Source of the DNA: a virus
DNA: 64,000 nucleotides
Reading direction: 5' to 3' (one strand)
Virus record (IMG/VR): IMGVR_UViG_3300032132_000001
Span: 106,573-170,572 of that record
Each line of letters starts with the position of its first letter. Positions within the stretch are counted from its first letter, which is position 1. Both the position numbers and the translations under genes were made by a program. Positions 45 through 16,605 of the stretch are shown here, piece by piece. Below the pieces are notes generated by a model that saw only the letters and a program-made list of their open reading frames with translations, was not told the origin of the DNA and did no database searches.

Positions 45-614
45 TCATCTCTGACCGAGATGTCTTGCCAATCTATCGGTGGACCTTTTCTGGTCTGCTC
101 TCTTCATCGCTCGTGGCTGGGTTCTCGCCATGTTAGAACGAGTGACCTGTTGCACTGTAGAAATTAGATTATCTAGATGCTGCTTGAGTTTGATATTCCC
201 CATCGTCAACGGCTGTGCTAGATGGGCAATTTCTGGTACTAGCGCTTTATACTGATCCATAGCTGCTGCCAGGGTACCAACATCTTCTTGAGAAGTTAGA
301 CTGGCTCGCGCTGCCTTTGCTAAGCTGTAAATCTTACCATATGCTTGCATTCTTGCTTCTCTGGCCATAGGTACTTTCTCATACATCTGGCCTCTTTCTT
401 TTTCTGCCGCAGCCGCAGCGAGTTGTTCTTGGGATGGCCCTGCTCCCGCCGCTGTAGCTTCCGGATCCATTTCTGGTGGTGTCTCTTGCGGCATTCTCTT
501 CCGTTTGGAGGATAAACGTCGCTTGATCGCACCAGGTATGTCTCTGATCGGCATCTCATTCATCACATCTGGATCTTCAGTGATGAGAGCTGCAATGGTG
601 TCAATGTCATCCAT
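45..614 (-). CDS. hypothetical Ala-rich protein with conserved N-terminal leader motif MDDIDTIAALITEDPDVMNE
   Basis: ORF 45..632. The internal Met (res 7) starts a 20-aa motif shared with ORFs at 1830, 14963 and 34060. Confidence 0.5.
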   Translation of the reverse strand: MDDIDTIAALITEDPDVMNEMPIRDIPGAIKRRLSSKRKRMPQETPPEMDPEATAAGAGPSQEQLAAAAAEKERGQMYEKVPMAREARMQAYGKIYSLAKAARASLTSQEDVGTLAAAMDQYKALVPEIAHLAQPLTMGNIKLKQHLDNLISTVQQVTRSNMARTQPRAMKRADQKRSTDRLARHLGQR

Positions 615-645
615 ACTGTACGTTTGCACCACAAATATATACGGT

Positions 646-1829: not shown

Positions 1830-2441
1830 GTGGACATACCAGACATCGTAGCGGCTTTACTCACTGAAGACCCCGACGTCCTCAATGAGATCTTGTCTCA
1901 TGACGAGATTACCAACCTAATTGCTCCCTTGATCGCTAGACATAAAGCGGGAAAGAAGGTGAGCAGCGGCGCTATCCATAAAATCATAAAAAGTGCCGAG
2001 CCAAAGACGCAAGAAGAAGCGTCGTCTCTTATGTGGCAAGTAAGACAGGCTATGATGCAGTATGGTATAGAATGGCCAGACCCAAAGGGCGCTGTTCCGA
2101 AAATTGCACCGGTACAGCCTGACCCAGAAGCGATCTCCAAAAGATATAAAGAATTTGACATTAATCCTGAGCGTAGAGATAAAAAAGCAGACCGTCGTCG
2201 TGAACGCCAGAAAGCCTGGAAGGGTGTAGAAAGGCGAAAGGCGCGGAGACGTAGTAGCCCTACCGATTCTTGGGTAGACGATTGCATCAAGACTACTAAA
2301 AATCCCAAGAAATGCAAAGAAGTAGCTCAGAGAGCCCGTTCTACTCCCCAACGCGGAGAGGAAGAGCAGGCACAGTGGTCTGGTCGCCCACGTCCAGTAC
2401 CTAAGCCCCCGAAAGAGGGGGAGCATGGGTTCAGAGGCTAG
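1830..2441 (+). CDS. hypothetical protein with N-terminal leader motif MDIPDIVAALLTEDPDVLNE and basic KR-rich C-terminus
   Basis: 203-aa ORF. The N-terminal 20 aa match the motif of ORFs at 614, 14963 and 34060. Confidence 0.55.
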   Translation: MDIPDIVAALLTEDPDVLNEILSHDEITNLIAPLIARHKAGKKVSSGAIHKIIKSAEPKTQEEASSLMWQVRQAMMQYGIEWPDPKGAVPKIAPVQPDPEAISKRYKEFDINPERRDKKADRRRERQKAWKGVERRKARRRSSPTDSWVDDCIKTTKNPKKCKEVAQRARSTPQRGEEEQAQWSGRPRPVPKPPKEGEHGFRG

Positions 2442-2456: not shown

Positions 2457-3098
2457 ATGCTCAATGTAATCTGTGTCAAGTGGGGCACCAAGTACAACCA
2501 CGATTACGTCAATAAGCTGTACAATATGACCCAGCGAAGGCTCAATTACGAGCATCGCTTCATCTGCCTCACCGACAACCCTGCCGGCATAGACCCTATA
2601 ATCGAGTCTTTGCCATTCCCGGAAGACGATACGGGATGGTGGAACAAACTAAACTTGTTTCGACCTTATCTCCACGACATCGAAGGTACTATCCTGTATA
2701 TGGATCTAGATGTCGTGCTTGTGGATAGTATCGACCCGTTGATCAACTACAAGGGCCGAAACTTCTGCATAATCGACGACTGGCTTCCACAGTTTCATCA
2801 TAATTCAAGTGTGATGCGCTTTGAGTTCGGCTCTCAACCACACATATGGACCAACTACGAAGAAAAGAAAGGGCTAATCCGCCAGAACTATAGAGGAGAT
2901 CAAGAATGGATCTCCAGACATGTACCAGATGCTACTACCTGGCCAGAAGGGTGGTGCTTCTCTTACAAATGGGGTGCCAAGCTCAAGGCGCTGAACAAAC
3001 CAGGTGTGGTGCCAGCCAACGGTAAGATTGGCGTATTTGCAGGAAGGCCAAAACAGGACGAAGTATCTGATCTCTGGGTGAAGCGTAACTGGAAGTAG
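2457..3098 (+). CDS. glycosyltransferase-like protein (DxD motif, nucleotide-sugar transferase fold)
   Basis: 213 aa. 'YMDLDVVLVD' DxD motif. N-terminal VICVKWGTKY is typical of sugar transferases. Confidence 0.45.
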   Translation: MLNVICVKWGTKYNHDYVNKLYNMTQRRLNYEHRFICLTDNPAGIDPIIESLPFPEDDTGWWNKLNLFRPYLHDIEGTILYMDLDVVLVDSIDPLINYKGRNFCIIDDWLPQFHHNSSVMRFEFGSQPHIWTNYEEKKGLIRQNYRGDQEWISRHVPDATTWPEGWCFSYKWGAKLKALNKPGVVPANGKIGVFAGRPKQDEVSDLWVKRNWK

Positions 3099-3133
3099 AT
3101 ACGCTGTTCACGAAACCTCAACCCAGGAAGAAA

Positions 3134-3547
3134 ATGAGATACGTATTGATTCTGTTGACTGTGTTTCTGACCGCTTGTTCTAATCCTCCTACGGAGAAGA
3201 AGGCACCTACCATCTCCTTCGAAACCCAGAGGACACTGAAGCTGTCAGTCACGCATTTCCACGACCACAACCGTACCCAATTCTACAGTACCATCGGCGA
3301 GATGGAAGCGTGGGACGGGAAGCAAAGCTCCGGGAAACTGGCGTTCAAGGCCGAAGAAGGAGCTGAAAACCAGGAAACGCCCTTTAGACCACTTGCTGGT
3401 CTACTGCTAGTCACTCAAGACGCAGTGAAGGCGTACACCACTCGCAATGAAGAGATCAACGAACTGCAAAGGTTCATCGATCTGAAGCAGTGGAACAATG
3501 CCTTGAAGGCTCAAGAAGCCCTGATCAGAACTCAAACTACTAAGTAA
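3134..3547 (+). CDS. putative lipoprotein
   Basis: Signal peptide ending in lipobox L-T-A-C (MRYVLILLTVFLTAC). Confidence 0.55.
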   Translation: MRYVLILLTVFLTACSNPPTEKKAPTISFETQRTLKLSVTHFHDHNRTQFYSTIGEMEAWDGKQSSGKLAFKAEEGAENQETPFRPLAGLLLVTQDAVKAYTTRNEEINELQRFIDLKQWNNALKAQEALIRTQTTK

Positions 3548-3553
3548 ACATTG

Positions 3554-3576
3554 GGAGGCCCTCCTAGAGGGCCTCC
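3554..3576. terminator. bidirectional stem-loop terminator (GGAGGCCCT/AGGGCCTCC, 5-nt loop) followed by a T-rich tract
   Basis: Perfect 9-bp GC-rich inverted repeat between convergent genes 3134..3547(+) and 3564..4382(-). Confidence 0.5.
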
Positions 3577-4382
3577 ATTATTTCCCCTGCTCTATCGAAC
3601 CCGTAAAGCCAGATATTTTCCATAGCTTTCGGGTTGAAATCTAGCACGTCGCCCAGGTGCCTCTCTGGGCTGATAATGATCAATTCCCTATTCCTACACA
3701 TTTGGGGTAGGTCGTTGCGCGCGATCTCGGATACCATAATATCTACGGTGCGCATCAAAATATCGATCAGGCCCGAAGGGTTTCTCTCTAGATGCTTGGT
3801 CTCAAGCGGGCTGTTGATTACTACTATGATCCGGTCAATGTGACGATCCCAAAGTACCGGTGCAACCGGGATAGTATCAATCAGACCTCCATCCCCGTAG
3901 TCGTCACCGTGGATGTTGACCAGAGGCATGATAGCTGGCATAGAGGCAGACGCTAGGACGTACTTCTCCCAGTTGTCCATATTCTCCATGGACGACTCGA
4001 TCCTTGCTACCATACCAGTTCTCATATTGGTAGCGGTTACGACGGCTTTCCGCCCGTTCACGTAAGCCTGTTGCAGCGCTTCTTTATCAGAGTAGCGTTC
4101 GATTAGGTTGGCGAGAGGGGAAGTATCAACGAGAGATCCGTGGACGAAAGCAGAGATTAGATCTCTATCTCTCAAAATGTCAGTATCTTCTATTCCACCT
4201 CGATAGACGTCATTTATTACTTCGATGTTGTCCAGGAGAATCGGACCTGCCATCAATGCTCCGGTCGAGGTCCCCGACACTATATCCCATCTGAAATCGT
4301 ACTGGGACATCAACCGGTAGATCGCACCCACCGCGAATGCCCCATTCCTTCCGCCTCCGCTGATTACTAATGCGTCGCTCAT
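3564..4382 (-). CDS. patatin-like phospholipase
   Basis: N-terminal GGGxxG oxyanion motif (ISGGGRNGAF), GTSTG serine lipase motif, and DGG catalytic Asp motif. Confidence 0.7.
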   Translation of the reverse strand: MSDALVISGGGRNGAFAVGAIYRLMSQYDFRWDIVSGTSTGALMAGPILLDNIEVINDVYRGGIEDTDILRDRDLISAFVHGSLVDTSPLANLIERYSDKEALQQAYVNGRKAVVTATNMRTGMVARIESSMENMDNWEKYVLASASMPAIMPLVNIHGDDYGDGGLIDTIPVAPVLWDRHIDRIIVVINSPLETKHLERNPSGLIDILMRTVDIMVSEIARNDLPQMCRNRELIIISPERHLGDVLDFNPKAMENIWLYGFDRAGEIMEAL

Positions 4383-4725
4383 TGGTTATTTCCAGGGCAG
4401 CTGTTATGAACAAGTGAACCACCTTAGACTCTGGTAGAGGTTCTACGCCTCTACGTTCTGCGATTCTCTTATATCGCAGATGTCCTAGTGACCCGGTTAC
4501 GTTTATTTTTCTTAGCTCAGCTTGTAACTTGACAATCGTTGGGATCTTAGTATCGTCCAGCCTGGATATTGTTACAGTCTTCCCAGGATCTCGGACCCAA
4601 GCTTTTATCCACGATTTGCAATCTGATCGTACTTCATCAACATGAGAACGATCATAGTCGGGTAGCTTGTCCCCGCAAGTGCAACCAGCAAGTACAAGAA
4701 GAGCGGCAAAGAGTAGTGTGCGCAT
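4210..4725 (-). CDS. putative lipoprotein (3' end uncertain; last ~57 codons overlap the patatin start out of frame)
   Basis: Lipobox LAGC (MRTLLFAALLVLAGC). The stop-to-stop ORF runs 173 nt into the patatin gene, with a low-complexity tail. Confidence 0.4.
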   Translation of the reverse strand: MRTLLFAALLVLAGCTCGDKLPDYDRSHVDEVRSDCKSWIKAWVRDPGKTVTISRLDDTKIPTIVKLQAELRKINVTGSLGHLRYKRIAERRGVEPLPESKVVHLFITAALEITNERRISNQRRRKEWGIRGGCDLPVDVPVRFQMGYSVGDLDRSIDGRSDSPGQHRSNK

Positions 4726-4729
4726 ATCC

Positions 4730-4741
4730 TATGTATACATA
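4730..4741. promoter_or_regulatory. perfect 12-bp palindrome TATGTATACATA in a divergent intergenic region, flanked by the inverted repeat ATCCTA/TAGGAT (candidate operator)
   Basis: Read directly in the 190-nt gap between the minus gene starting at 4725 and the plus gene starting at 4919. Confidence 0.3.
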
Positions 4742-4918
4742 AAGTATGTGCGAAATACCTTCTGAAAAGTATCTTTTGTGCTGTAGGATATTCGTCTTTT
4801 TAGATGAGTGGCTATTCTACTTGCTATTGCTTTATCTCTGGTTCCAGAGCGAACTCCTTTTGTTCGGGATAGTTGTTGCGCTGGGGTCTATCTTTATCGT
4901 TACATCGTACATAGGACA

Positions 4919-5110
4919 ATGGACACTCGAAAGAAAGAGGTTTGGGAGCTTGTTTACGTCTGTGCATGGTGTCAAGAAGACATTGTGGAAGACGGAACCC
5001 CCAAAACAATCTTAGTAGACAAGAAAGATCAAGCTGGGGTTTCGCACGGCATGTGTAAATCCTGCTTCGACATAAAGGTAGCTGAACTAAGGAGCGGCAA
5101 GAATGCCTAA
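4919..5110 (+). CDS. small zinc-ribbon protein
   Basis: MDTRKKE start inside ORF 4808..5110. CxxC...CxxC arrangement (CAWCQ...CKSC). Confidence 0.4.
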   Translation: MDTRKKEVWELVYVCAWCQEDIVEDGTPKTILVDKKDQAGVSHGMCKSCFDIKVAELRSGKNA

Positions 5111-5309
5111 GATGCGCGGAATCATCCTGAGACATGGCAAGATGAACAGTGATGGTAGAGTCTTCTCCAAGAAAGACGTAAAAGGGATCTGCGAGCGACT
5201 CACCAAGCGTGGGTATCCTGTAGAGCTTGATGATAATGGTAATCTCGTATCCAACGGGATGGAAATCCGAGATATCAAGAATGAGCTTAGTGTACCACAC
5301 GACGGCTAA
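5103..5309 (+). CDS. hypothetical protein
   Basis: 68-aa ORF. 8-nt overlap with the upstream gene (translational coupling). Confidence 0.4.
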   Translation: MPKMRGIILRHGKMNSDGRVFSKKDVKGICERLTKRGYPVELDDNGNLVSNGMEIRDIKNELSVPHDG

Positions 5310-5342
5310 AGAAATGCAAGTAACCCCACTGGGAGTAGCATC

Positions 5343-5795
5343 ATGCGATTCTCGCTTCTGCTTTTGCTTCTGTTGGTTGCCTGTAGTTTATCTGGATGTA
5401 TCTCGCTCGGACAAGACGAGCGATTGACGGAAATCGCACAAGAAGAATGGTTGCGCAGTGGGCCCCCTGATATGTTCAGGTACACCTATATTAGAGGAAA
5501 ACTGTGCATTGGGTCTCCTGCCGCAAGAGGACATTTTGATGGTACTCTATCAGTATATGTCCCATGGCCTTGGAACTATTGCGAATTTATGACTCGTATC
5601 ATAATGAGATATGAGCTGAGTAAAGTAGCCTGGCAGTTACATGGGGCTCAATTAGTAGAAGAGAATGGCCCATATGCTGCGCCGGTTACGATCCCTATTT
5701 GTATGTATATGTGGCTAGATGCTGTCTTCCATCTTCCAACCAGCGAACTCCACTCTTGGTACCGTTCGTTGTTTCCTGGGGAAATTCAAAAATAG
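5343..5795 (+). CDS. putative lipoprotein
   Basis: Signal peptide with lipobox LSGC (MRFSLLLLLLLVACSLSGC). Confidence 0.55.
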   Translation: MRFSLLLLLLLVACSLSGCISLGQDERLTEIAQEEWLRSGPPDMFRYTYIRGKLCIGSPAARGHFDGTLSVYVPWPWNYCEFMTRIIMRYELSKVAWQLHGAQLVEENGPYAAPVTIPICMYMWLDAVFHLPTSELHSWYRSLFPGEIQK

Positions 5796-5799
5796 GAAA

Positions 5800-6069
5800 A
5801 TGGAACCTCTCAAAATCAAGACCTATTGCGTCGTAGAGCGGACTCAAGAAACTGCTTGCAAGTATGCAACTGAGAGGTACATGTTCGACCATGGTGGGAT
5901 CGAAGAAGCCCGCATGTTGATTATTAAGGCGGGCGGATCCCTCAACTTCCGAATCACTGATGCTGTGATGATCCCTGGATCTCAAGAATTCATATTCCAG
6001 GTACAGATTGGGATCCCACATCCAGAAGAAGAAGAGGTCGAAGAAGACGACGACTACGATTTCATATAA
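5800..6069 (+). CDS. hypothetical protein with acidic C-terminus
   Basis: ATG at 5800 with an upstream AGGAAAA SD. C-terminus EEEEVEEDDDYDFI. Confidence 0.4.
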   Translation: MEPLKIKTYCVVERTQETACKYATERYMFDHGGIEEARMLIIKAGGSLNFRITDAVMIPGSQEFIFQVQIGIPHPEEEEVEEDDDYDFI

Positions 6070-6078
6070 ATATAAGTC

Positions 6079-6996
6079 ATGAGAAAGGCACTAATTGTAG
6101 GTATCAATAGATACAAAGACCCGCGTGATAATCTACGCGGATGTGTGCCCGATGCTAGAGGTATGCGCCGAGTTCTCAAGAACGTTTACAAGTTCCACCC
6201 TGATAATATCAGGATGCTCCTGAACGAGAGAGCCACCAGGCGTAACATCCTAGTTCGCTTGGAGTGGCTAGTTGGCAAAGCCAAGCCTGGCGACGTGCTA
6301 TTCTTCCATTTCAGTGGCCACGGCTCTCAGATCCGAGATCGCAACGGCGACGAACTCAACGACCATCTCGATGAGATTATTTGCCCATATGACATGGATT
6401 GGGCAAATCCGCTCTCGGACGACGTATTGAAAAGAAAGTTCGCCAAGCTTCCGCGCGGCGCACACATGTACTTGGTGTTCGATTGTTGCCACTCTGGTTC
6501 GGTTGACAGAGGCAACCCTCATTCACCTGATGCCGATGGTGACAGCTACCGTAAATCTCGGTTCCTGTTGCCACCATTGGACATAGCGATGCGCGCAGAC
6601 GAGCGTGAACTCAAACGTAGGAAAGTCGGTTTAAAAAACGCGGAGGCTTGTTGGTGCAGCCGCAAGTTTCCAAAAGTAATGAACTATCTTGGAGGGTTGG
6701 TTCCAGCGATCGCAGAGAGAGCAAGGAAAAAACCCCCAGAGCCTAAACAAAGACACATCATGATTTCCGGATGTCGCGATAATCAGACGAGCGCAGACGC
6801 CTTTATTCAAGGCGCTTACGCAGGGGCCCTATCTTGGCACCTAATCGACGCTCTCACGCGATATCCCGGCCTACCAGTGCAAGAGGTGCATAGAAGGGCA
6901 CGTCGGGCAATCCTACAGCGTGGATTCACGCAGGATTCCCAATTCAGGGGGCCCAAGGCCCTCCGAAATCTGCCCTTCTGCAGCGCCCCGGCCTAA
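6079..6996 (+). CDS. caspase-like peptidase (C14 metacaspase/orthocaspase, p20+p10)
   Basis: Catalytic His in HFSGHGSQ and Cys in LVFDCCHSG. A p10-like SGCRDNQTSADA segment is present. Confidence 0.75.
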   Translation: MRKALIVGINRYKDPRDNLRGCVPDARGMRRVLKNVYKFHPDNIRMLLNERATRRNILVRLEWLVGKAKPGDVLFFHFSGHGSQIRDRNGDELNDHLDEIICPYDMDWANPLSDDVLKRKFAKLPRGAHMYLVFDCCHSGSVDRGNPHSPDADGDSYRKSRFLLPPLDIAMRADERELKRRKVGLKNAEACWCSRKFPKVMNYLGGLVPAIAERARKKPPEPKQRHIMISGCRDNQTSADAFIQGAYAGALSWHLIDALTRYPGLPVQEVHRRARRAILQRGFTQDSQFRGPKALRNLPFCSAPA

Positions 6997-7214
6997 CCGC
7001 CGAAGTATCTGACCGATGCGGCGATTTCAAAACGAGGTTAGGCAATGTCTGTATGCGAACTGTGCTGGGTCAACGAGGGTTTCATCACCATTCCGATGGC
7101 CCCTCTACCAGACGCTCAAGTATGTGAGTACTGCGAAGGAGATCTAGAAGAAGTAAAGAAGCCAGCGATCCAGAAGATCGTAAATATCATCGGATGGCTA
7201 AGCAAAAAACGGAA

Positions 7215-7291
<77 letters not shown>

Positions 7292-7516
7292 GTGATTACA
7301 GTAAGACGGCTTTTGCCGAAGTACAGAACAGAACAGTTAGCTGAGTTCAACTCAGTGGAGGAGGCAACTAGAGCGGTGAGAGCATTCCGCAAAGAGGGTT
7401 ATACGGGGAGTTTGGTTGTAGAGGAGTGGGAAGAGGGCTATATGGCCCACTACTATCCTCCGCTTCCAACTCGTGTATCGGTTCGGTTGTACCAGAACCG
7501 CATATACCACCCGTAG
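7292..7516 (+). CDS. hypothetical small protein (GTG start immediately after tRNA-Pro)
   Basis: 74-aa ORF filling the inter-tRNA gap. Confidence 0.3.
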   Translation: MITVRRLLPKYRTEQLAEFNSVEEATRAVRAFRKEGYTGSLVVEEWEEGYMAHYYPPLPTRVSVRLYQNRIYHP

Positions 7517-7582
7517 CTCAACTGGCAGAGCGCTTGGCTGTAAACCAAGAGGTTGTAGGTTCGACTCCTACCGGGTGGACCA
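7507..7582 (+). tRNA. tRNA with anticodon GTA (Tyr), class I type with short variable loop
   Basis: Acceptor CCACCCG/CGGGTGG, anticodon stem CTTGG/CCAAG, loop CTGTAAA, CCA encoded. Confidence 0.6.
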
Positions 7583-7801
7583 ATGGATGAAAAAGATCTA
7601 AACAGACTGATCCACATGTCAGACCAAGCTGGAAAGGCAGTGGAGCTTCAGGCAGAGTTCTACAAGAAGTTCTTCTGGACTCTAGTTGCGGAACCACAGC
7701 CTATGCCACTAGAGGCTGCAATAGCTCTTGTGGTCGGGTATCAAAAGGCTGTTCTTTACGCCGCGCTTAACCAACAAGGAAATCAAGAAAATCAAGAATA
7801 A
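7583..7801 (+). CDS. hypothetical small protein
   Basis: 72-aa ORF starting at the base after the tRNA 3' end. Confidence 0.35.
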   Translation: MDEKDLNRLIHMSDQAGKAVELQAEFYKKFFWTLVAEPQPMPLEAAIALVVGYQKAVLYAALNQQGNQENQE

Positions 7802-7807
7802 CAAGAT

Positions 7808-7883
7808 GGGGTCTTAGCTCAATTGGGAGAGCACCTGCCTTGCACGCAGGGGGTTGAGGGTTCGAGTCCCTCAGGCTCCACCA
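7808..7883 (+). tRNA. tRNA-Ala(TGC)
   Basis: Acceptor GGGGTCT/AGGCTCC, anticodon loop CTTGCAC, CCA encoded. Confidence 0.8.
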
Positions 7884-7888
7884 TCTAA

Positions 7889-7963
7889 TCTGGGGTAACT
7901 CAATTGGTAGAGTACCTGGCTGTTAACCAGGGAGTTGCGGGTTCGAGTCCCGCCCCCAGAGCC
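7889..7963 (+). tRNA. tRNA-Asn(GTT)
   Basis: Acceptor TCTGGGG/CCCCAGA, anticodon loop CTGTTAA, CCA encoded. Confidence 0.8.
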
Positions 7964-8312
7964 AATGTGCACTAAATCCAAGGGAATGGGAAGCTTCCAG
8001 GCCGAGCTTCCCGCTGAGGAGGGAGATTGGCTCTGGGTATGCCAATGGGGATGCGGCTGCGTGCGTCGAGCTGGCATCGCTTGGATAGTGTCGATTCAAG
8101 ATGCGCCTGATGCTTTGGATCTTGGAAATGGCTTCGCTCTTTCCTGGGAAGGGCAGAGTCCGAATGACACGATAGACCGGATGGATTCTAGCCAGCTACA
8201 AGATGTAGCCGGTTGGATGAAGCTGGACCTTCCGGAAAGTTATGATAACAAGATGGACAGACAGAAAGAAGAAGACCTGCTGGAAGCTGTGAAAAATTGC
8301 CCTGTGGTGTAA
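7964..8312 (+). CDS. hypothetical protein
   Basis: ATG directly after the tRNA-Asn CCA. Trimmed from ORF 7935..8312. Confidence 0.35.
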
Positions 8313-8371
8313 TGGAAGCACGTTTGGCTCTGGACCAGACGGTCGAGGTTCGAATCCTCGCAGGGTAGCCA
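8298..8371 (+). tRNA. tRNA-Gln(CTG)
   Basis: Acceptor TGCCCTG/CAGGGTA, anticodon loop CTCTGGA, CCA encoded. Confidence 0.75.
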
Positions 8372-8617
8372 ATGTGGTGTGATTATCTAGAAAGCATGAG
8401 CGAAGCGGAGCTAAAAGCGTTCCGCCTCTCCCTATGGAAGCACGCGGGCGATGCGAGCAAGAAGATTCGCTGTCCGAAGTGCAACAAGAGGGTAGGGGTA
8501 CGCTCTGTATTCGACTCCAAGCTGGGAGAAACCGTGATCAACCTAAGTCCACATAAGGTCAGGACCACCAAAGCCAAGACGCCTAAGAATAAAGACAAGC
8601 GCATACGACAACGCTAA
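8372..8617 (+). CDS. hypothetical small protein with CPKC zinc-ribbon-like motif
   Basis: 81-aa ORF starting right after the tRNA. Confidence 0.35.
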   Translation: MWCDYLESMSEAELKAFRLSLWKHAGDASKKIRCPKCNKRVGVRSVFDSKLGETVINLSPHKVRTTKAKTPKNKDKRIRQR

Positions 8618-8621
8618 CCAT

Positions 8622-8695
8622 TGCCCTGTGGTGTAATGGTAGCACGAGAGGTTTTGGTCCTCCAGGCGCGAGTTCGATTCTTGCCAGGGCAGCCA
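8622..8695 (+). tRNA. tRNA-Gln(TTG)
   Basis: The 5' half is nearly identical to the tRNA-Gln(CTG) copy. Anticodon loop TTTTGGT, CCA encoded. Confidence 0.75.
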
Positions 8696-8703
8696 AAGGA
8701 GAA

Positions 8704-9042
8704 GTGATGAGTGAAGTAATTCGTGGTCTGTGTGTAACCATCTCAGGTCAAGAGATCGTAGAGCGAGCGCATAGGCGTTTGGAAGATGCTGAAGAACGTC
8801 TGGAGAAGTTGAGGGAAGCTCTCACTCGGGTCGATGAAATGGACCCTCGTGATCGTGAGCTTGCTGGGCTCAAGACTCGCGGAGGCGACATGAAGGACGA
8901 GGTCGAGCAGAAGATCAGACAGCAAGAGTCGGCTATTGAATTCTACGAGTTCTTGTCTGAACACGTCGAAACGGATTCTAGCTACCGGATCGATATCTCT
9001 CAACTCAAGATCTTCGGTATCGAGAGCCCTTACCGATACTAG
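8704..9042 (+). CDS. hypothetical coiled-coil protein
   Basis: 112-aa ORF. Confidence 0.35.
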   Translation: MMSEVIRGLCVTISGQEIVERAHRRLEDAEERLEKLREALTRVDEMDPRDRELAGLKTRGGDMKDEVEQKIRQQESAIEFYEFLSEHVETDSSYRIDISQLKIFGIESPYRY

Positions 9043-9046
9043 AGCC

Positions 9047-9457
9047 ATGAAGACCTACAAAAACATCGTCCAGTGTGGTGCGGATGATCTGAGGAAGATG
9101 CTTCTTCAGAAAGAGCAAGAAGAAATCAGCGGTGTAGTAAACGTCGCTTGGAATGTGAACCCTCCTATTGCTCACGATGCGTGGCGTCCTGTTCTTTGGC
9201 AACCTTATCACGATGAAAAAACACCAGAGGTAGATTGGTTCAAGCCAATCATTGCATTTTACGAACTCTGGAGCAAGAGTGGTAAGGTAGTAATCCACTG
9301 CCAAGCTGGTGGGAATCGTTCAAGAGGAACTTTCGGCGTACTTCTGGTCGCTTGTCACGGGATGACGGCTCAAGAAGCGATAAAGATCACTGGGCAGCCA
9401 GGGTACTCAGCATGGCGAATAGCGATTGAAAACCAAGCGAGACATCTGGGAAGATGA
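9047..9457 (+). CDS. dual-specificity/tyrosine protein phosphatase (CX5R)
   Basis: Active-site loop VVIHCQAGGNRSRG (HCxxGxxRS). The start was taken at the internal Met of ORF 8936..9457. Confidence 0.6.
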   Translation: MKTYKNIVQCGADDLRKMLLQKEQEEISGVVNVAWNVNPPIAHDAWRPVLWQPYHDEKTPEVDWFKPIIAFYELWSKSGKVVIHCQAGGNRSRGTFGVLLVACHGMTAQEAIKITGQPGYSAWRIAIENQARHLGR

Positions 9458-9738
9458 CGTACGACTACGAAGACAACGACGACACATACGTTTGCAGACT
9501 ACCAGGTGGGTACCATCTGTTTAGGAAGCCAAACGAAGCTGGTGGCTTCACTTATTACTCTGATGAAGTAGGTGGAGGCGTCTTCGTTTGGGACACCGGC
9601 TTGGTAGCTGACACCACCTTGATGGCAGCGATCGTAGCAGAGCAGGCAAGAGCGTTCGAAACAGAGATATTCCTCAAGAGAGAGACAAGAGACCAAGTTA
9701 ACGAGATCATAAGGGCCGACTCGGAGGACGAGGCGTGA
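9454..9738 (+). CDS. hypothetical acidic protein
   Basis: 94-aa ORF with an ATGA overlap. Confidence 0.4.
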   Translation: MTYDYEDNDDTYVCRLPGGYHLFRKPNEAGGFTYYSDEVGGGVFVWDTGLVADTTLMAAIVAEQARAFETEIFLKRETRDQVNEIIRADSEDEA

Positions 9739-9739
9739 C

Positions 9740-9812
9740 AAAGGCGACTAGTTACGGCACTTAGGTGTAGGACCTGTCACGAACGGTGGTTCAATTCCAT
9801 CTCGGTTCACCA
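9740..9812 (+). other. tRNA-like 3' fragment (T-arm GGTGG-TTCAATT-CCATC, acceptor 3' strand, CCA) with no matching 5' acceptor or anticodon arm found
   Basis: The T-loop and CCA end are canonical. The upstream 70 nt do not fold into D and anticodon arms. Confidence 0.3.
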
Positions 9813-10048
9813 TGAAAGTATACGCAGTAACGTTCAAAGTCCATCACCAGTTACCTAAATTGTTTTTGGAGCTTACTAAAGCTATAGGGTACGCACAGAA
9901 AGAGATGCCTAATTCTTTCTATCTTCCCTATGATAAGAATTGGGGTTGGCAGTTGAGCGCTATCACAAAAGATTGCAAATTCTGGAGGACAGTAGACGGT
10001 AACGTTTTTATACGTGAGACAACTTTAGACCAAGTATTGCGGGTGTAG
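9812..10048 (+). CDS. hypothetical protein
   Basis: 78-aa ORF. The ATG shares the A of the preceding CCA. Confidence 0.35.
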   Translation: MKVYAVTFKVHHQLPKLFLELTKAIGYAQKEMPNSFYLPYDKNWGWQLSAITKDCKFWRTVDGNVFIRETTLDQVLRV

Positions 10049-10113
10049 CTCAGTGGTAGAGCTTCGGGTTTCCAACCCGATGGTCGCGGGTTCGAATCCC
10101 GCCGCCCGCTCCA
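10039..10113 (+). tRNA. tRNA-Gly(TCC)
   Basis: Acceptor GCGGGTG/CGCCCGC, anticodon loop TTTCCAA, CCA encoded. Confidence 0.8.
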
Positions 10114-10323
10114 ATGACAACTCCAAGACAGTACAGTCTGGTGAAAGCAGTGCTGGCCGAGGAATATGAAGATCAATACCCGTTTGCAAACGGTGACACC
10201 TTCATCTTCCTCGGTGAGATAATCCAGATGCCTGGGCATTGTGTGATAGCAGCTAAAAATGGACAAGTTCTTTTCGGCTATCACACCGACAATTTTGTCG
10301 AACTAACTGAAGACGAAGCATGA
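10114..10323 (+). CDS. hypothetical small protein
   Basis: 69-aa ORF starting immediately after the tRNA. Confidence 0.35.
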   Translation: MTTPRQYSLVKAVLAEEYEDQYPFANGDTFIFLGEIIQMPGHCVIAAKNGQVLFGYHTDNFVELTEDEA

Positions 10324-10499
10324 AAGAGCTTGTCAGTAGGATTGAAGAACTGACACGAGAGAATCACGACCTGCGAAAGCAGGTCAAACAGTTGAGTAAG
10401 ACCAACATCGACGCTTTGGCATCGATGACGATCATTACTCAGAACACAGAGTTGAAAGACCTGAGGCGGCAGGTCGAGGAGTTGAAAGATGGGATATAA
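10320..10499 (+). CDS. small coiled-coil protein (59 aa, below the ORF-track cutoff)
   Basis: MKELVSRIEELTRENHDLRKQVKQL... Read by hand. ATGA overlap with the upstream gene. Confidence 0.3.
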   Translation: MKELVSRIEELTRENHDLRKQVKQLSKTNIDALASMTIITQNTELKDLRRQVEELKDGI

Positions 10500-11343
10500 A
10501 AAGATCGTGAACATGTACAAGGACACTGGAGTCCTTATGTTCCGGGAAGTCTACGCCATGGAGAAAATCCACGGCACATCCGCTCATATCAAGTACCATG
10601 AAGGGGAGATCACCTTCTTCTCTGGAGGCGGCAAACACGAGACGTTCGTAGCGCTGTTCGATCTAGAGAAGTTGGCTGAGGCTTTCAAGGCGATCGGTCA
10701 CGACGAAGTTACCATCTACGGTGAGTCCTACGGTGGCAAGCAGCAGGGTATGTCTGACACCTACGGTAAAGAGGCTCGCTTCGTAGCTTTCGAAGTGAAG
10801 GTACACGATTGCTGGCTCAATGTGCCGAACGCGCACGACGTCGTAACCAAGCTCGACCTTGAGTTCGTGCACTACGAGAAGGGCCCGGCTGAGCTTGACT
10901 GGCTCAACGAGCAACGGGACGCACCGTCTGTACAGGCGAAGCGGAACGGGATCGAAGAGGATAAGCTCCGGGAAGGTGTCGTTGTACGGCCTCTCATGGA
11001 GATGTGGAAGTCTAACGGCGAGCGGGTCATGTGCAAGCACAAGCATGATAAGTTCCGTGAGACTAAAACTCCCCGTGAGGTGGACCCTGAGAAAATGAAG
11101 GTCCTAGAAGACGCGCGGGCTGTTGCAGAAGAGTGGGTTGTAGATATGCGGCTCCAGCACGTCATGGACAAGATGGAGAAGGTGGGGGAGATGGAGCATA
11201 CCCCTCTCGTCATCAAGGCTATGATCGCTGACGTCAAGGCAGAGAGCGAGGGCGAAGTAGTATGGTCGAAGGACGTGGAGAAGGCGATCGGTCGGGCGAC
11301 AGCTCAGCTGTACAAGAAGACGGTCTCCAAGATCCCGGTGTAA
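10489..11343 (+). CDS. RNA ligase, Rnl2-like (T4 RnlB family)
   Basis: Motif I EKIHGTS (KxHGxN/S adenylation lysine), motif III YGESYGG, motif IV EGVVVRP, motif V MCKHK. Confidence 0.65.
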   Translation: MGYKKIVNMYKDTGVLMFREVYAMEKIHGTSAHIKYHEGEITFFSGGGKHETFVALFDLEKLAEAFKAIGHDEVTIYGESYGGKQQGMSDTYGKEARFVAFEVKVHDCWLNVPNAHDVVTKLDLEFVHYEKGPAELDWLNEQRDAPSVQAKRNGIEEDKLREGVVVRPLMEMWKSNGERVMCKHKHDKFRETKTPREVDPEKMKVLEDARAVAEEWVVDMRLQHVMDKMEKVGEMEHTPLVIKAMIADVKAESEGEVVWSKDVEKAIGRATAQLYKKTVSKIPV

Positions 11344-11423
11344 AACATCCTACTACCCTGTCAGGTTATTCAATAGACGACCTGGCAGGGGAGTTGGCCA
11401 ACCTACGATACGACGCGCTGACT

Positions 11424-11594
11424 ATGCTTTTGGCAAAGCTCGGGGCTAAACTGTGTAACGATGCTGTGGCTGATCTTGGAAGAGGTCGGCCACAGCTTGC
11501 AGGACACCTCAAGAAAGCTGGAGTGAGCACCTTTGATGCCGCTCGGGAAATGCGAAAGGCGTGGTTGGTCTGCGAACCTTTCATGAAAACCTAA
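11424..11594 (+). CDS. hypothetical small protein (start uncertain)
   Basis: Part of ORF 11262..11594 downstream of the ligase stop. Confidence 0.2.
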   Translation: MLLAKLGAKLCNDAVADLGRGRPQLAGHLKKAGVSTFDAAREMRKAWLVCEPFMKT

Positions 11595-11598
11595 AGAT

Positions 11599-11676
11599 GG
11601 TGGACGTAGCTCAGTCTGGTAGAGCGCCTGGTTGTGGTCCAGGTCCGCGCGGGTTCGAATCCCGTCGTCCACCCCA
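11599..11676 (+). tRNA. tRNA-His(GTG) with encoded G-1
   Basis: Acceptor GTGGACG/CGTCCAC with an extra 5' G opposite discriminator C. Anticodon loop TTGTGGT, CCA encoded. Confidence 0.8.
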
Positions 11677-12045
11677 TTGGATGAGCCACCTAATTTCTGC
11701 TGCATTTGTCGGGAGCCGATTTTCGACTCCTGGTTTCACGGGCAGGGGATGCGGTGTGGCAAGACCGAATGTGAAATCCTATTTGAGTTGAAAATGGCTG
11801 TTGGCTTAATGTGGATGAGGTACGTTGGATCTCCAGCTTTTGTTTGGGGATGTGCGGGTTCTGGAGATATAGCAGACCCAAACTTCAACCCAGCAGGTGT
11901 GAGGATCAACCAGTACATCATAAACTTCCAGAACGACGAAGTGTTTTATGTAAGTAACTGCTTTGGCGCTTACTGGCGAAAGCAGCGAGATTGTTCTGCT
12001 TTCGAATCTGAGATGGTAAGGAAGGAATTCGCAAAGAGAATATGA
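11677..12045 (+). CDS. hypothetical Cys-rich protein (CCICREP...CGKTEC), start codon uncertain (TTG?)
   Basis: ORF 11632..12045 trimmed to begin after the tRNA. Confidence 0.3.
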   Translation: MDEPPNFCCICREPIFDSWFHGQGMRCGKTECEILFELKMAVGLMWMRYVGSPAFVWGCAGSGDIADPNFNPAGVRINQYIINFQNDEVFYVSNCFGAYWRKQRDCSAFESEMVRKEFAKRI

Positions 12046-12296
12046 GCATTCTCCGACCTCAAAAAGACCCGCGAACCGCCGCGCAGAAAGAGTCAGATAA
12101 TCGCATACAAGAGAATATGAGTCCAGTCTACGACCTTTGGCGACAAGACGACAACGGGAATAGGTTCTTCGTCCAAACGTATGTAAGCTTGACTGAAGGG
12201 CAAGAAGTAAGAGATAACTTGGAAAGCAAAAATCACAAGCAACTTTACTTGCTTGTAACACGGAGTTGTGGCAGAGATGGTAATGCGCGGGATTGA
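12042..12296 (+). CDS. hypothetical protein (3' end overlaps tRNA-Phe)
   Basis: 84-aa ORF. Confidence 0.25.
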   Translation: MSILRPQKDPRTAAQKESDNRIQENMSPVYDLWRQDDNGNRFFVQTYVSLTEGQEVRDNLESKNHKQLYLLVTRSCGRDGNARD

Positions 12297-12336
12297 AGAT
12301 CCCGTGATCCCGGTTCGACTCCGGGCAACTCCACCA
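12262..12336 (+). tRNA. tRNA-Phe(GAA)
   Basis: Acceptor GGAGTTG/CAACTCC, anticodon loop TTGAAGA, CCA encoded. Confidence 0.75.
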
Positions 12337-12389
12337 AGGATGGAAACGATGGACGAACTCAAGCGAAAACCCTGGGGTAAACACAACCA

Positions 12390-12461
12390 CGGGGCGTAAC
12401 TCAACGGTAGAGTAGCTGGCTCTTAACCAGTCTGTTGTAGGTTCGAATCCTGCCGCCCTGA
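12390..12461 (+). tRNA. tRNA-Lys(CTT), no encoded CCA
   Basis: Acceptor CGGGGCG/CGCCCTG, anticodon loop CTCTTAA. Confidence 0.7.
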
Positions 12462-12465
12462 CTTC

Positions 12466-12538
12466 CGGGGTGTAGCTCAGCTGGTAGAGCATCCGGCTTT
12501 TAACCGGGCGGTCGTGGGTTCGAATCCCTCCACCCTGA
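12466..12538 (+). tRNA. tRNA-Lys(TTT), no encoded CCA
   Basis: Acceptor CGGGGTG/CACCCTG, anticodon loop CTTTTAA. Confidence 0.7.
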
Positions 12539-12819
12539 CTAGAAATGAGAATCTGGATCCTGAAAGGTCTTTACGGTCGAGGCAGATGTTTTCAACTTTG
12601 GAAGCATCTGGAAGAAATCTATGACACCTTTGAAGAAGCAGTCAAAGAGGTTGTCAACCTTCGGAAAAGTGGAATAACACTCCACATCAAGGTAGCAAGA
12701 GAAGTTGGGTTTATCGAACGATAACCCACTAACGAAGACCAATGAATAACACAACCACTCCCAACGGACCGAAGCGGCGATGGCGCCGACGATGTACTCG
12801 CCAACTATCGCGAGTATAT

Positions 12820-12894
12820 GGCCGTGTGGTAGAGTGGTTCATGCGCTAGACTGCAAATCTAGAGACCTGGGTTCGAATCCCAGCACGGCCTCCA
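12820..12894 (+). tRNA. tRNA-Cys(GCA)
   Basis: Acceptor GGCCGTG/CACGGCC, anticodon loop CTGCAAA, CCA encoded. Confidence 0.75.
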
Positions 12895-12900
12895 CGATTT

Positions 12901-12971
12901 AGGGAGGGTGCTGGGCATAGACCGGTCTCCAAAGCTAGTCCTCGCGGGTTCGATTCCCGTCCTCCCTGCCA
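12901..12971 (+). tRNA. atypical tRNA-like gene, possible Trp (CTCCAAA loop, anticodon CCA) with imperfect anticodon stem and short D-arm
   Basis: Perfect acceptor AGGGAGG/CCTCCCT, canonical T-arm GCGGG-TTCGATT-CCCGT, CCA encoded. The core does not fold canonically. Confidence 0.35.
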
Positions 12972-12978
12972 TACAATT

Positions 12979-13049
12979 AGGGGGCGGTCGGTGCCCACGC
13001 AGACCATCGAAAGTCCGTAAGCCAGGTTCGACTCCTGGGCCCCCTGCCA
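12979..13049 (+). tRNA. atypical tRNA-like gene, anticodon not assignable
   Basis: Perfect acceptor AGGGGGC/GCCCCCT, T-arm CCAGG-TTCGACT-CCTGG, CCA encoded. No canonical anticodon arm. Confidence 0.3.
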
Positions 13050-13128
13050 GAGACAACCTAGGATGTAGCTGCGAGTGCGCACAGAAAAGGCCACTCTCTA
13101 AGCTGGCAGCTGAAGGTTAGTCTCATTT

Positions 13129-13205
13129 GCACCCGTAGCTCAGTGGACTAGAGCATCTCGCTACGGACGAGGGGGTCGTAGGTTCGAATCCTACCGGGTG
13201 TGCCA
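13129..13205 (+). tRNA. tRNA-Arg(ACG)
   Basis: Acceptor GCACCCG/CGGGTGT, anticodon loop CTACGGA, CCA encoded. Confidence 0.75.
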
Positions 13206-13221
13206 CAAAGGAGGCAGTACC

Positions 13222-13373
13222 ATGGCAAAGCAGGCGAAGGGTCACCAGAAGAGGAAGTGTGAGCGTTGTGGTGGGACCGGGAGGACCTGGACCCAGATCA
13301 TCCCACTCAAAGGCAAGAAGAAGATGGTTTCTGCACCATGCGATAAGTGCGGCGTATCTAAGCAGAATGGCTA
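13222..13373 (+). CDS. small zinc-ribbon protein (50 aa), strong SD AAAGGAGG
   Basis: MAKQAKGHQKRKCERCGGTG...CDKCGVSKQNG. Read by hand; absent from the ORF track because it is under 60 aa. Confidence 0.5.
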
Positions 13374-13495
13374 GAAAATACGAGAAAGCGTTCTTCAAGA
13401 AGAGGTGGCTAACCACCATCTATGTTGATGGCGATATAGAGTCTGCTATCTCTGGTCTAGAATCTGCAAAAGAAAAAGAATCAAGGACGCAATAA
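13366..13495 (+). CDS. hypothetical small protein
   Basis: MARKYEKAFFKKRW... The internal start of ORF 13259..13495, overlapping the upstream gene by 8 nt. Confidence 0.25.
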
Positions 13496-13508
13496 GCCTA
13501 TTGCGTCG
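13487..13508. terminator. stem-loop GACGCAAT-aagcct-ATTGCGTC
   Basis: 8-bp perfect inverted repeat following the small-gene cluster. Confidence 0.3.
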
Positions 13509-13544
13509 TCACGGGTATTCAGTAGTCAAGAAAAAGGGAAAGAA

Positions 13545-13826
13545 ATGAAACTCCGTACATTTCTATCATTCACCGCTGGGATGATGTCAGCTTCGGCCTT
13601 GGCCTTTGCTGTCGCGTCCTTCATGGCGGAACCCCATATTGCCTGGCGCTGTCAAGCGACCGCTCTTATCCTCTTAGTCATCTCTTATTTCTGGACTCAC
13701 GAAGCTGTGAGGTTAGAGAAAGAAGAGAAGCGCCCAAAGGGAGCAGACAAAGAGAAGCAGAAGGAGATAGAAGGCGGTTATAAATTCTCAACGGCTCACT
13801 CTGCAGCTCTTAGGAGCAAGCCGTAA
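13545..13826 (+). CDS. small membrane protein (2 TM helices), in frame with the downstream RRF homolog across a single TAA
   Basis: Hydrophobic segments. SD AAGGGAAAG. The stop TAA at 13824 is in the same frame as the RRF-like sequence that follows. Confidence 0.45.
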   Translation: MKLRTFLSFTAGMMSASALAFAVASFMAEPHIAWRCQATALILLVISYFWTHEAVRLEKEEKRPKGADKEKQKEIEGGYKFSTAHSAALRSKP

Positions 13827-14330
13827 GGCAACCTACGGCAGGACCTCGATAAGCCGGTACAACATCTCAAAGATCTATATTCTGGAATCAGCGTAGGGAG
13901 AGCCAATCCGGCTCTCCTCGATGGTGTGAAGGTTGAGTGCTATGATGATCTACTCCCTCTCACCCAAATCGCATATGTGTCGATCCTAGGGCCTGAAATT
14001 CTTCAGGTTATACCTTATGATCGAGCACTCATTGGTGCTATCCGAAGAGGGTTGCACAATTCCAAGCTTCCGCTCAGCCCGACCGTAGAAGGTGATCGGC
14101 TGATCGTCAAGGTCCCGATCCCCGACATAGATGATCGGAAGAAGCTAGAGAAGCACGTCAAGAAGCTCGCTGAGGCTCAACGCGTTGCTATCAGGCAGAT
14201 CCGGCGCAAAGCGAGAAAGGCGGGCGAAAACGAAAAGACCGTTGAAGACCTGGTGAAAGAGTATATTAACAAAATAGACGACCTTCTAGCGAAGAAGGTC
14301 GAAGACCTAAACCCAAAGAGCTTCTTCTGA
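13827..14330 (+). CDS. frr: ribosome recycling factor homolog (frr-like); no canonical start codon before the GTG at 13926
   Basis: Residues align with E. coli RRF (LLDGVKVECYDD ~ LLDGIVVEYYG; AIRQIRRKARK ~ AVRNVRRDAND). The homology continues 33 codons upstream of the annotated start to the TAA. Confidence 0.55.
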   Translation, partial: GNLRQDLDKPVQHLKDLYSGISVGRANPALLDGVKVECYDDLLPLTQIAYVSILGPEILQVIPYDRALIGAIRRGLHNSKLPLSPTVEGDRLIVKVPIPDIDDRKKLEKHVKKLAEAQRVAIRQIRRKARKAGENEKTVEDLVKEYINKIDDLLAKKVEDLNPKSFF

Positions 14331-14650
14331 TGTTTCCTACTCGACCAGATGGGACTACCGAGCAATGGTTAGATGATCAGTTTATTAACGATCATCCCTA
14401 TGCTATGCTCACCAGAAGAGGGAAATTATATGATGTACACAGGCATTGGGGAGAAGATCTAGCAGACCCAAGGAATGAATATGATGCTATATTCTTCGTG
14501 TGCGACGGGATATCCTTCATAGCTGAAGATGATGGTTGCATCGGAGTAGCGGAATGGTCAAAAGTCGAGAAAGCATGGTTCGTCTGGTTCTGGGTAGATA
14601 AACATGGCGAACTAGAATATCTCAACCAACACCTGAGGGAAATACTATGA
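14330..14650 (+). CDS. hypothetical protein
   Basis: 106-aa ORF with an ATGA overlap. Confidence 0.4.
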   Translation: MFPTRPDGTTEQWLDDQFINDHPYAMLTRRGKLYDVHRHWGEDLADPRNEYDAIFFVCDGISFIAEDDGCIGVAEWSKVEKAWFVWFWVDKHGELEYLNQHLREIL

Positions 14651-14949
14651 ACAAATCCTACTTCGGAAATGTCAAGGTCCACCTTACTTGGCTCGTTCTT
14701 GCTACTCTGATGTCCTTCGTGTCCTACACGGTCGGTCAGTTCAAGTACAGCTACTTCGAAAACCTGGCCGACGACGCTACAAAGCAGCTAGTCGAGACCA
14801 AGGAAATTATGGAACGTCAACAGACGACCCTCGTCTCGGCTATCCGTAAGAAGAACCAAGCCGAAGGCCAGCTTGAAGGTCTCAAAGACGACGTAGACAA
14901 CCTCAAACTGCAAATCGAGATGTACAAGAAGCTATTGAAAAAGCAGTAG
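14647..14949 (+). CDS. membrane-anchored coiled-coil protein
   Basis: N-terminal TM helix then coiled-coil. ATGA overlap. Confidence 0.4.
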   Translation: MNKSYFGNVKVHLTWLVLATLMSFVSYTVGQFKYSYFENLADDATKQLVETKEIMERQQTTLVSAIRKKNQAEGQLEGLKDDVDNLKLQIEMYKKLLKKQ

Positions 14950-14962
14950 GCAAACCTAGAAT

Positions 14963-15967: not shown

Positions 15968-15981
15968 GACTCACCAAAACT

Positions 15982-16073: not shown

Positions 16074-16074
16074 T

Positions 16075-16254: not shown

Positions 16255-16255
16255 C

Positions 16256-16603: not shown

Positions 16604-16605
16604 AG

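Follow-up and report, generated by a model that had tools for sequence, protein, structure and literature searches.

Does the divergent arrangement of a patatin-like phospholipase gene and a metacaspase gene in a huge phage reveal a single functional system, or have two unrelated genes come to lie side by side? We analyze this question on a 64,000-nucleotide (nt) stretch of DNA (hereafter, the window) spanning positions 106,573 to 170,572 of IMG/VR virus record IMGVR_UViG_3300032132_000001, in which both genes lie between positions 3554 and 6996. An earlier reading, made from the letters of the window alone (the sequence-only reading), had described two divergent modules around a palindromic operator and had likened the two enzymes, each with a lipoprotein partner, to an abortive-infection pair. 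Every open-reading frame (ORF) in that description was recovered in its place. Our results indicate that patatin and metacaspase are probably independently inherited accessory modules that abut head-to-head by chance in this lineage; the reading as an abortive-infection-like pair with an operator, attractive as it is, finds no support. The elements on which this conclusion turns are the following:

3564-4382, minus strand: patatin-like phospholipase of 272 amino acids (aa), PF01734, no signal peptide
4210-4725, minus strand: lipoB, a lipoprotein ORF of 171 codons with N-terminus MRTLLFAALLVLAGC, lipobox LAGC and motif VRSDC(R/K)SW
4726-4918: divergent region of 193 nt, with no Rfam match
5800-6069, plus strand: acid89, 89 aa with an acidic-aromatic C-terminal tail, directly 5′ of the metacaspase
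6079-6996, plus strand: metacaspase of 305 aa, PF00656, with H81 (SGHGSQ), C137 (DCCHSG) and the p10 motif SGCRDNQTSADA (231-242)

The conclusion derives primarily from a comparison of the neighbourhoods, spanning ±6-10 kb, that surround relatives of each enzyme. Across about six metacaspase neighbourhoods, no patatin gene lies within 6-10 kb of the metacaspase in relatives L002/L004-L006, L070 (on a contig of up to 132 kb), L012, L014 and L072, and no metacaspase gene was found near the patatin of relatives L007-L011, L016, L017 and L019, five patatin-clade neighbourhoods having been compared. Likewise, none of 50,697 GenBank phage records holds both enzymes, with the metacaspase detected by tblastn in one record and the patatin in five others. 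The sequence-only reading had linked the two genes while naming independent neighbourhoods elsewhere as the observation that would undo the link; such neighbourhoods are what we observe, and the search for co-occurrence among relatives and GenBank phages was negative.

Taken by itself, the patatin retains the features of an active enzyme. Its match to PF01734 scores 77.4 bits against a Pfam cut-off of 27.7 and covers residues 5-176, and the protein carries an oxyanion loop (G9-G-G-R-N-G14), a nucleophile elbow (G37-T-S39-T-G41) and a catalytic D164-G-G. The GGG loop, the GxSxG elbow and D164-G-G are invariant across 10 aligned sequences, and the claim that the patatin is catalytically complete holds, all catalytic residues being present in the alignment. 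The N-terminus M..ALVISGGG is likewise found in all ten aligned relatives (MSDALVISGGG... in the window). The public gene call for this protein (P0121) spans only 229 aa and begins at Met44, past Ser39, so that both the GGG oxyanion loop and Ser39 are lost. Judged from the sequence, the P0121 start is a mis-annotation, brought about by the upstream lipoprotein ORF, which runs 173 nt into the patatin gene; the present analysis thus corrects a public record that deletes the catalytic serine. The patatin is predicted to be a cytoplasmic Ser-Asp lipid acyl-hydrolase.

What does recur beside the patatin is lipoB, which precedes it in the same orientation both in the window and in relatives L010, L017 and L019. 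Identities to the window proteins for lipoB and patatin, respectively, are 41% and 48% in L010, 41% and 46% in L017, and 51% and 56% in L019, and the four genomes differ widely in base composition. The lipoB ORF of the window overlaps the start of the patatin gene by 173 nt in a different frame. Since lipoB homologues measure only 116-124 aa, ending where the patatin overlap begins, and codon usage inside the overlap is that of the patatin frame, the last ~54 codons of lipoB (4210-4374) would constitute a lineage-specific read-through tail, with the conserved core of the gene at ~4375-4725. We also considered a programmed frameshift joining lipoB to patatin; this is excluded by an in-frame TAA two codons before the patatin ATG, and is contradicted by the homologues of both, which are separate genes. 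The mature lipoB, of ~100 aa, is predicted to be helical in a low-confidence model. Single-sequence AlphaFold predictions, with predicted local distance difference test (pLDDT) values of 53 for lipoB and 51 for acid89, are too poor for fold searches. On sequence evidence, lipoB is most likely a conserved but topologically separate partner of the patatin.

The patatin clade was seen solely on phage-like contigs, among which identities range from 42 to 58%, and its best match in 185,579 species genomes is just 31-33% identical. No relative of lipoB was recovered from the same species genomes by pattern scan. These two results together argue that lipoB and patatin belong to the lineage of a phage group and were not captured recently. 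Scans of IMG/VR returned no relative for the single patatin sequence, and a single match for the lipoB alignment, which falls on the same 192-kb contig as L019. Beyond lipoB, translational coupling links the patatin of L010 and L017 to a gene of the sigma-70 family, and an HU-like gene follows the patatin. On the L019 contig (Ga0255048_10000002, a 192-kb phage contig), the patatin homologue is present as rearranged partial copies (6977-7365, 7381-7521 and 10001-10536), which comprise residues 12-137 and a fusion of residues 4-45 to 137-269. The stretch between these patatin pieces contains another, partial copy of lipoB along with ~2.5 kb of paralogous genes; an intact lipoB is present as well (4264-4620). 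The patatin is broken in this phage and would therefore be dispensable.

The metacaspase is equally complete. It matches PF00656 with 113.7 bits against a Pfam cut-off of 21.4, and its p20 (residues 2-142) and p10 (214-272) regions align to the fungal metacaspase-1 structures 7qp0 and 4f6o (E 5e-37). H81, C137 and the p10 signature SGCxDxQTSAD (G231-C232...Q236-T-S-A-D240) are invariant in 11 sequences, which bears out the earlier description of a full p20+p10 metacaspase; all its catalytic residues are intact. The protein has neither prodomain nor signal peptide and opens directly with its core (MRKALIVGINRY...). An acidic cluster at residues 87-105 is conserved, and the conserved acidic residues comprise D25, D87, D91, E92, D95, D98, E99, D105 and D234. 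Metacaspases have been described as Ca2+-dependent enzymes that cleave after Arg or Lys (PMC9622860), and both properties are expected here from the conserved residues and the family literature. Other homologues depart from this compact layout: P0007 bears an N-terminal hydrophobic, transmembrane (TM)-like segment, P0036 and P0011 have other N-terminal extensions, and P0093 and P0107, which lack a signal peptide, end in a PG_binding_1 domain, an endolysin-like architecture.

The closest relative of this metacaspase, in L003, is 75% identical. More distant phage copies were found in the 338-kb phage L002/L004-L006 (44% identity) and in the 485-kb GenBank phage LR745208 (L072; 36%), and an IMG/VR scan with the metacaspase returned one relative, L002. 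On L012, a 29-kb phage contig, a distance of 1.6 kb separates the gene from a GH108 endolysin. The sequence-only reading had assigned each enzyme a lipoprotein partner, a claim that stands for the patatin, which lipoB adjoins in four genomes; for the metacaspase it stands in part, in that an unrelated lipoprotein of 175-180 aa is encoded immediately 5′ of the gene in a second clade of huge phages, with none in the other metacaspase contexts. Downstream of the window metacaspase there follow a small zinc-ribbon ORF and an array of 22 tRNA genes, starting with tRNA-Pro (7215-7291). A metacaspase just upstream of an array of 22-24 tRNA genes is observed in two huge-phage clades (window 6079-7291; L002 10001-12387) whose metacaspases are 44% identical, and this suggests an old synteny common to both.

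Envelope localization, proposed earlier for both enzymes on account of their lipoprotein neighbours, does not agree with the proteins themselves, since both lack a signal peptide and start directly at their core elements. Because neither enzyme has a signal peptide, patatin and metacaspase are predicted to be cytoplasmic, with the lipoproteins exported. The remaining genes and features of the locus are:

3134-3547, plus strand: lipoA, a predicted lipoprotein of 137 aa (MRYVLILLTVFLTAC) with lipobox LTAC, convergent with the patatin gene, no family match
3554-3576: GC-rich hairpin GGAGGCCCTC-CTA-GAGGGCCTCC between the convergent lipoA and patatin genes, over the patatin stop codon
4746-5015, plus strand: possible ORF of 89 codons with two TM segments, inside the supposedly intergenic gap and overlapping the zinc-ribbon start
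4919-5110, plus strand: zinc-ribbon-like protein (CxxC-x26-CxxC) of 63 aa, with coding-like codon usage, absent from the public gene call, no homologue detected
5103-5309, plus strand: protein of 68 aa (p68), no homologue found
5343-5795, plus strand: lipoC, a predicted lipoprotein of 150 aa (MRFSLLLLLLLVAC) with lipobox LVAC and atypical codon usage, no homologue found
7045-7224, plus strand: CxxC...CxxC protein of 59 aa, kept in L003, its end overlapping tRNA-Pro (7215-7291)

The hairpin is likely a bidirectional terminator. Neither lipoA (3134-3547) nor the possible two-TM ORF (4746-5015) had been listed by the sequence-only reading, and the latter is ambiguous, with an in-frame codon usage value of 0.125 against a reference mean of 0.40 for the long ORFs of the window. 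Tight coupling of the plus-strand string, proposed earlier, is borne out by spacings of -8, 33, 4 and 9 nt. PHROGs, Pfam, NCBIfam and PADLOC gave no match for the five small proteins. LipoB (LAGC), lipoC (LVAC) and lipoA (LTAC) all have the make-up of predicted lipoproteins (an N-terminal basic residue, a hydrophobic stretch and the lipobox [LVI][ASTVI][GAS]C), and two further predicted lipoproteins are encoded in the tRNA region, MKYLMLLLLFVGC (20282-20680, plus strand) and MRTLALFALILCGC (21451-21654, plus strand). As the first 22 kb of the window contain five credible genes for lipoproteins, adjacency to a lipoprotein is weak evidence of a functional relationship. The acid89 family is tiny, with ~2-3 small homologues in an exhaustive search of 1.84 billion cluster representatives and no relative in an IMG/VR scan with the acid89 alignment; matches to proteins of 600-4,163 aa were short, multi-stretch alignments and were treated as spurious.

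Any joint control of the two modules would have to be sought in the divergent region, which contains the following elements:

4730-4741: perfect 12-bp palindrome TATGTATACATA, single copy in the window
4727-4735, minus strand: copy 1 of the 9-mer TACATAGGA, ending 1 nt before the lipoB ATG
4908-4916, plus strand: copy 2 of the 9-mer TACATAGGA, ending 2 nt before the zinc-ribbon ATG
4784-4794, plus strand: TAGGATATTCG, complementary at 10 of 11 positions to 4721-4731, which contains the AGGA and ATG of lipoB

Exactly two copies of the 9-mer TACATAGGA occur in the 64 kb of the window, inverted with respect to each other and both in the gap, where ~0.5 exact copies would be expected in the window as a whole. 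A rough estimate places the probability of this arrangement by chance between 6e-5, if the whole 9-mer is taken as free sequence, and 4e-3, if a Shine-Dalgarno-like AGGA is allowed at both sites anyway. The 6-nt repeat ATCCTA/TAGGAT belongs to a longer inverted repeat of 11 nt, paired at 10 of 11 positions (4721-4731/4784-4794). The predicted fold of the minus-strand RNA pairs the AGGA and AUG of lipoB, sequestering the start, with a free energy of -14.6 kcal/mol and a z-score of -2.3. Together, TACATAGGA and the 11-nt repeat suggest that this genome has a common element for control at translation initiation or at the RNA level.

The sequence-only reading had identified the palindrome, flanked by the repeat, as an operator. 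Both the palindrome and the repeat (ATCCTA at 4726, TAGGAT at 4784) are present, in a gap of 193 nt, but perfect 12-bp palindromes occur across the window at chance frequency (14 observed against ~15.6 expected in random sequence). Within 190 nt the expectation is ~0.05. The palindrome TATGTATACATA is a chance feature. Were it instead a DNA operator for a dimeric repressor controlling both divergent operons, perhaps the zinc-ribbon protein, its position beside the lipoB start and the identity of the first plus-strand gene, which encodes a small zinc-ribbon protein, would both fall into place; set against the count of palindromes, the lack of a second TATGTATACATA site in the window and the lack of any predicted sigma-70-like promoter in the gap (4726-4918), we consider such an operator very unlikely. 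Independent inheritance of the two enzymes has, for its part, several points to contend with. Their co-occurrence elsewhere in the same genome is ruled out for GenBank records only; the upstream side in L003, the closest metacaspase relative, is covered by no contig, and the pairing could therefore have been kept in the immediate lineage; the 9-mer at both starts hints at co-regulation in this genome; and the unrelated lipoprotein beside the metacaspase of the second huge-phage clade leaves room for a lipoprotein-metacaspase relationship. A rival idea is that both enzymes act as co-effectors, under common divergent control, of a single cell-killing or exclusion system, be it a captured abortive-infection-type module or superinfection exclusion. 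Such a system would make sense of the divergent layout around a single 193-nt region, where TACATAGGA precedes each start, of a 42%-identical bacterial metacaspase, P0061, whose surroundings are an island with many toxin-antitoxin and HEPN/NTase genes, and of weak PADLOC matches to a phospholipase effector and a caspase model. All the same we hold it to be quite unlikely, as the pairing is missing from all other neighbourhoods compared and from all GenBank phages, and the profile scores fall far under curated cut-offs, among them that of the DS2 phospholipase. The patatin scores 28.3 bits against the lipase model of the cyclic-oligonucleotide-based antiphage signalling system (CBASS; NF041079, cut-off 200), with no adjacent CD-NTase gene, and 27 bits against the RssA model (cut-off 272), while the metacaspase scores 47.6 bits against the EACC1-type caspase model NF047832 (cut-off 140). 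Pfam and PADLOC scans of the string revealed no sensor, cyclase, gasdermin or NTPase gene, and the neighbours of the metacaspase have no Pfam or PADLOC match that would mark a gasdermin or EACC1 partner. The pairing as defence effectors that the sequence-only reading had suggested is thus not borne out by either the scores or the neighbouring genes. Furthermore, the patatin clade and lipoB are phage-only over a wide range of guanine-cytosine (GC) content, hence no recent capture, and GC content carries no island signature. The metacaspase family may have conflict-related roles in bacteria, which is no ground for calling this locus a defence system.

Narrower roles can be envisaged for each module on its own. 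LipoB and patatin might be lysis accessories, with the patatin passing through holin lesions to degrade phospholipids and lipoB acting in spanin-like fashion in the outer membrane. The conserved lipoprotein-patatin linkage agrees with this proposal, as does a small protein, seen in L010 and L017 only, with an N-terminal TM segment and a charged, probably helical region, that is encoded between or beside lipoB and patatin and is loosely i-spanin-like; the patatin lacks a signal peptide, as an endolysin would, and one metacaspase relative lies 1.6 kb from the GH108 endolysin mentioned above. We nonetheless regard a lysis role as doubtful: endolysin and holin families have no match in 2457-7224, where no two-component spanin or lysis cassette was recognized, and neither an endolysin nor a holin was recognized near the patatin in any relative. 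The sigma-70-family and HU-like neighbours in L010 and L017 are regulatory rather than lytic, the mature lipoB is, on its low-confidence helical prediction, unlike the short, proline-rich o-spanins, and the patatin has decayed in L019. For the plus-strand module, acid89 and the metacaspase might form an inhibitor and enzyme pair, in which the acidic acid89 restrains the basic protease until a trigger releases it to cut host proteins, for instance immune ones. The two genes are separated by 9 nt, with acid89 directly upstream of the metacaspase both in the window and in L003; a small acidic gene followed by an enzyme recalls the organization of type II toxin-antitoxin systems, and a bacterial metacaspase homologue sits within a toxin-antitoxin-rich island. 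Yet the acid89 homologue of L011 has no neighbouring metacaspase and precedes an unrelated gene, distant phage metacaspases have different genes upstream (an HNH gene, a lipoprotein gene or a divergent gene), and the acid89 structure model is unusable (pLDDT 51), all of which makes this pairing rather unlikely.

Returning to independent inheritance, we infer that patatin and metacaspase constitute neither a system of two enzymes nor a defence island nor a complex in the envelope. The locus would be a mosaic piece of an accessory, tRNA-adjacent region in a huge phage of ~397 kb. Its minus-strand module would comprise lipoB and then patatin, with the exported lipoprotein gene kept upstream across strongly diverged phages, and its plus-strand module would run from the zinc-ribbon gene through p68, lipoC, acid89 and the metacaspase on to the tRNA array. 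Phospholipids of the host membrane, attacked from the cytoplasmic face, are the most likely substrate of the patatin, and the metacaspase, a prodomain-less enzyme similar to type I, most likely cuts host or phage proteins after Arg or Lys in the host cytoplasm, where acid89 may regulate it. These would be two distinct functions, in takeover or in dismantling of the cell, neither of which the phage needs to keep. Presence of TACATAGGA at both divergent starts is the sole local sign of joint control, and could reflect a common translation-initiation or RNA-operator motif. One may speculate further on a damage-gated switch, in which damage done to the inner membrane by the cytoplasmic patatin late in infection would cause an influx of Ca2+ that turns on the Ca2+-dependent metacaspase, until then restrained by acid89, for the processing of host or phage proteins, by analogy with wound-activated plant metacaspases and with co-expression set by TACATAGGA; we deem this highly improbable.

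Comparison with known systems helps delimit these functions. Like type I metacaspases (Mca1/Yca1; MEROPS C14B), the window enzyme aligns over p20 and p10 and has the His-Cys dyad, SGCxDxQTSAD and the acidic cluster, but it lacks an N-terminal prodomain, contains a clade-specific insert of ~35 residues between p20 and p10, and is encoded by a phage beside a tRNA array. It shares 41-45% full-length identity and an equal domain layout with stand-alone ‘caspase family proteins’ of bacteria, ~270 aa long, such as P0061 from Nitrospirae; the bacterial P0061 copy lies in a toxin-antitoxin or defence-type island, whereas the phage copies lie among small ORFs, lipoproteins and tRNAs. The patatin shares with CapV, the CBASS patatin activated by cyclic GMP-AMP (cGAMP), the patatin fold, the Ser-Asp dyad and, as predicted, a cytoplasmic location and an attack on the membrane from inside, and differs from it in having neither an adjacent CD-NTase nor a C-terminal regulatory region. 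Patatin-like phospholipases have been reported, with no assigned function, in the megaphages Mar_Mega_1 and LR745206 (PMC9723777). These are also PF01734 enzymes from very large uncultured phages, but they were not detected by tblastn (E ≤ 1e-5), and the window patatin belongs to a different, compact clade (272 aa) with a lipoprotein neighbour. The window lipoproteins resemble phage o-spanins (Rz1) and exclusion lipoproteins (T5 Llp, Cor) in being small phage proteins with a lipobox signal peptide, and differ from them in showing no detectable family similarity and no adjacent i-spanin or endolysin gene.

Metacaspase-1 has been reported, with no function assigned, in viral operational taxonomic units from sponges (bioRxiv 10.64898/2026.01.21.700432). 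Two major surveys of jumbo and huge phages mention neither patatin nor metacaspase, and no characterized phage metacaspase was found in the searchable literature; no role has been demonstrated for any phage-encoded metacaspase or patatin. Against this background, the locus defines a phage-only patatin clade with a conserved lipoprotein neighbour and an intact, prodomain-less metacaspase found in three or more lineages of huge phages, in two of which it lies just upstream of large tRNA arrays. Both enzymes offer small, expressible targets for asking how large phages use ‘cell-death’ enzymes.

The window belongs to a phage-like contig of 397,419 bp, on which the metacaspase is found with its exact sequence; a 58-kb Logan contig carries that sequence too. 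In addition to 22 tRNA genes, the window has genes with strong PHROG matches for DnaB, NAMPT, glycosyltransferases, an SSB-like protein and a DnaE split in two. Its sole DNA similarity to known phages, as compared with 50,697 phage records, is the tRNA-Pro gene, and the nearest match of DnaE, from a 595-kb uncultured phage, is 32% identical. The source of the window is an uncultured huge phage, far from anything deposited. GC content at the locus ranges from 0.43 to 0.55 without discontinuity, and a recent horizontal island was ruled out on these grounds.

The tRNA region presents a feature of its own. At 7 of the 22 tRNA genes, an ATG, GTG or TTG occupies the very next base past the encoded CCA and opens an ORF of 69-122 codons; these tRNA genes end at 7291, 7582, 7964, 8371, 10113, 11676 and 16829 (region 7215-16829). 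By chance, this would be expected at ~0.3% per tRNA. In two further tRNA genes, a start codon of this kind is displaced to +1 or +2. In L003, the abutment and the ORFs are both kept at the Asn and His tRNA genes and almost so at those for Tyr, Gln and Lys; the distant huge phage L002 lacks both. This pattern suggests that tRNA processing yields leaderless mRNAs, in a manner similar to mitochondrial ‘tRNA punctuation’, and it may outrank the patatin and metacaspase finding in interest.

Elsewhere in the window, DnaE (Pol III alpha) is split into two minus-strand ORFs (57220-59805 and 60666-62156) that lie ~860 nt apart. The NTPase domain is divided between them: its beginning is encoded with the PHP domain in one ORF, and its remainder with the fingers and a helix-hairpin-helix (HhH) motif in the other. 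There is also a fragment of a family-A polymerase at 44146-45291. Near the start of the window, two ORFs of ~200 aa, at 45-632 (minus strand) and 1830-2441 (plus strand), are diverged paralogues with the common N-terminal motif D(I)xxIAALxTEDPDVxNE.

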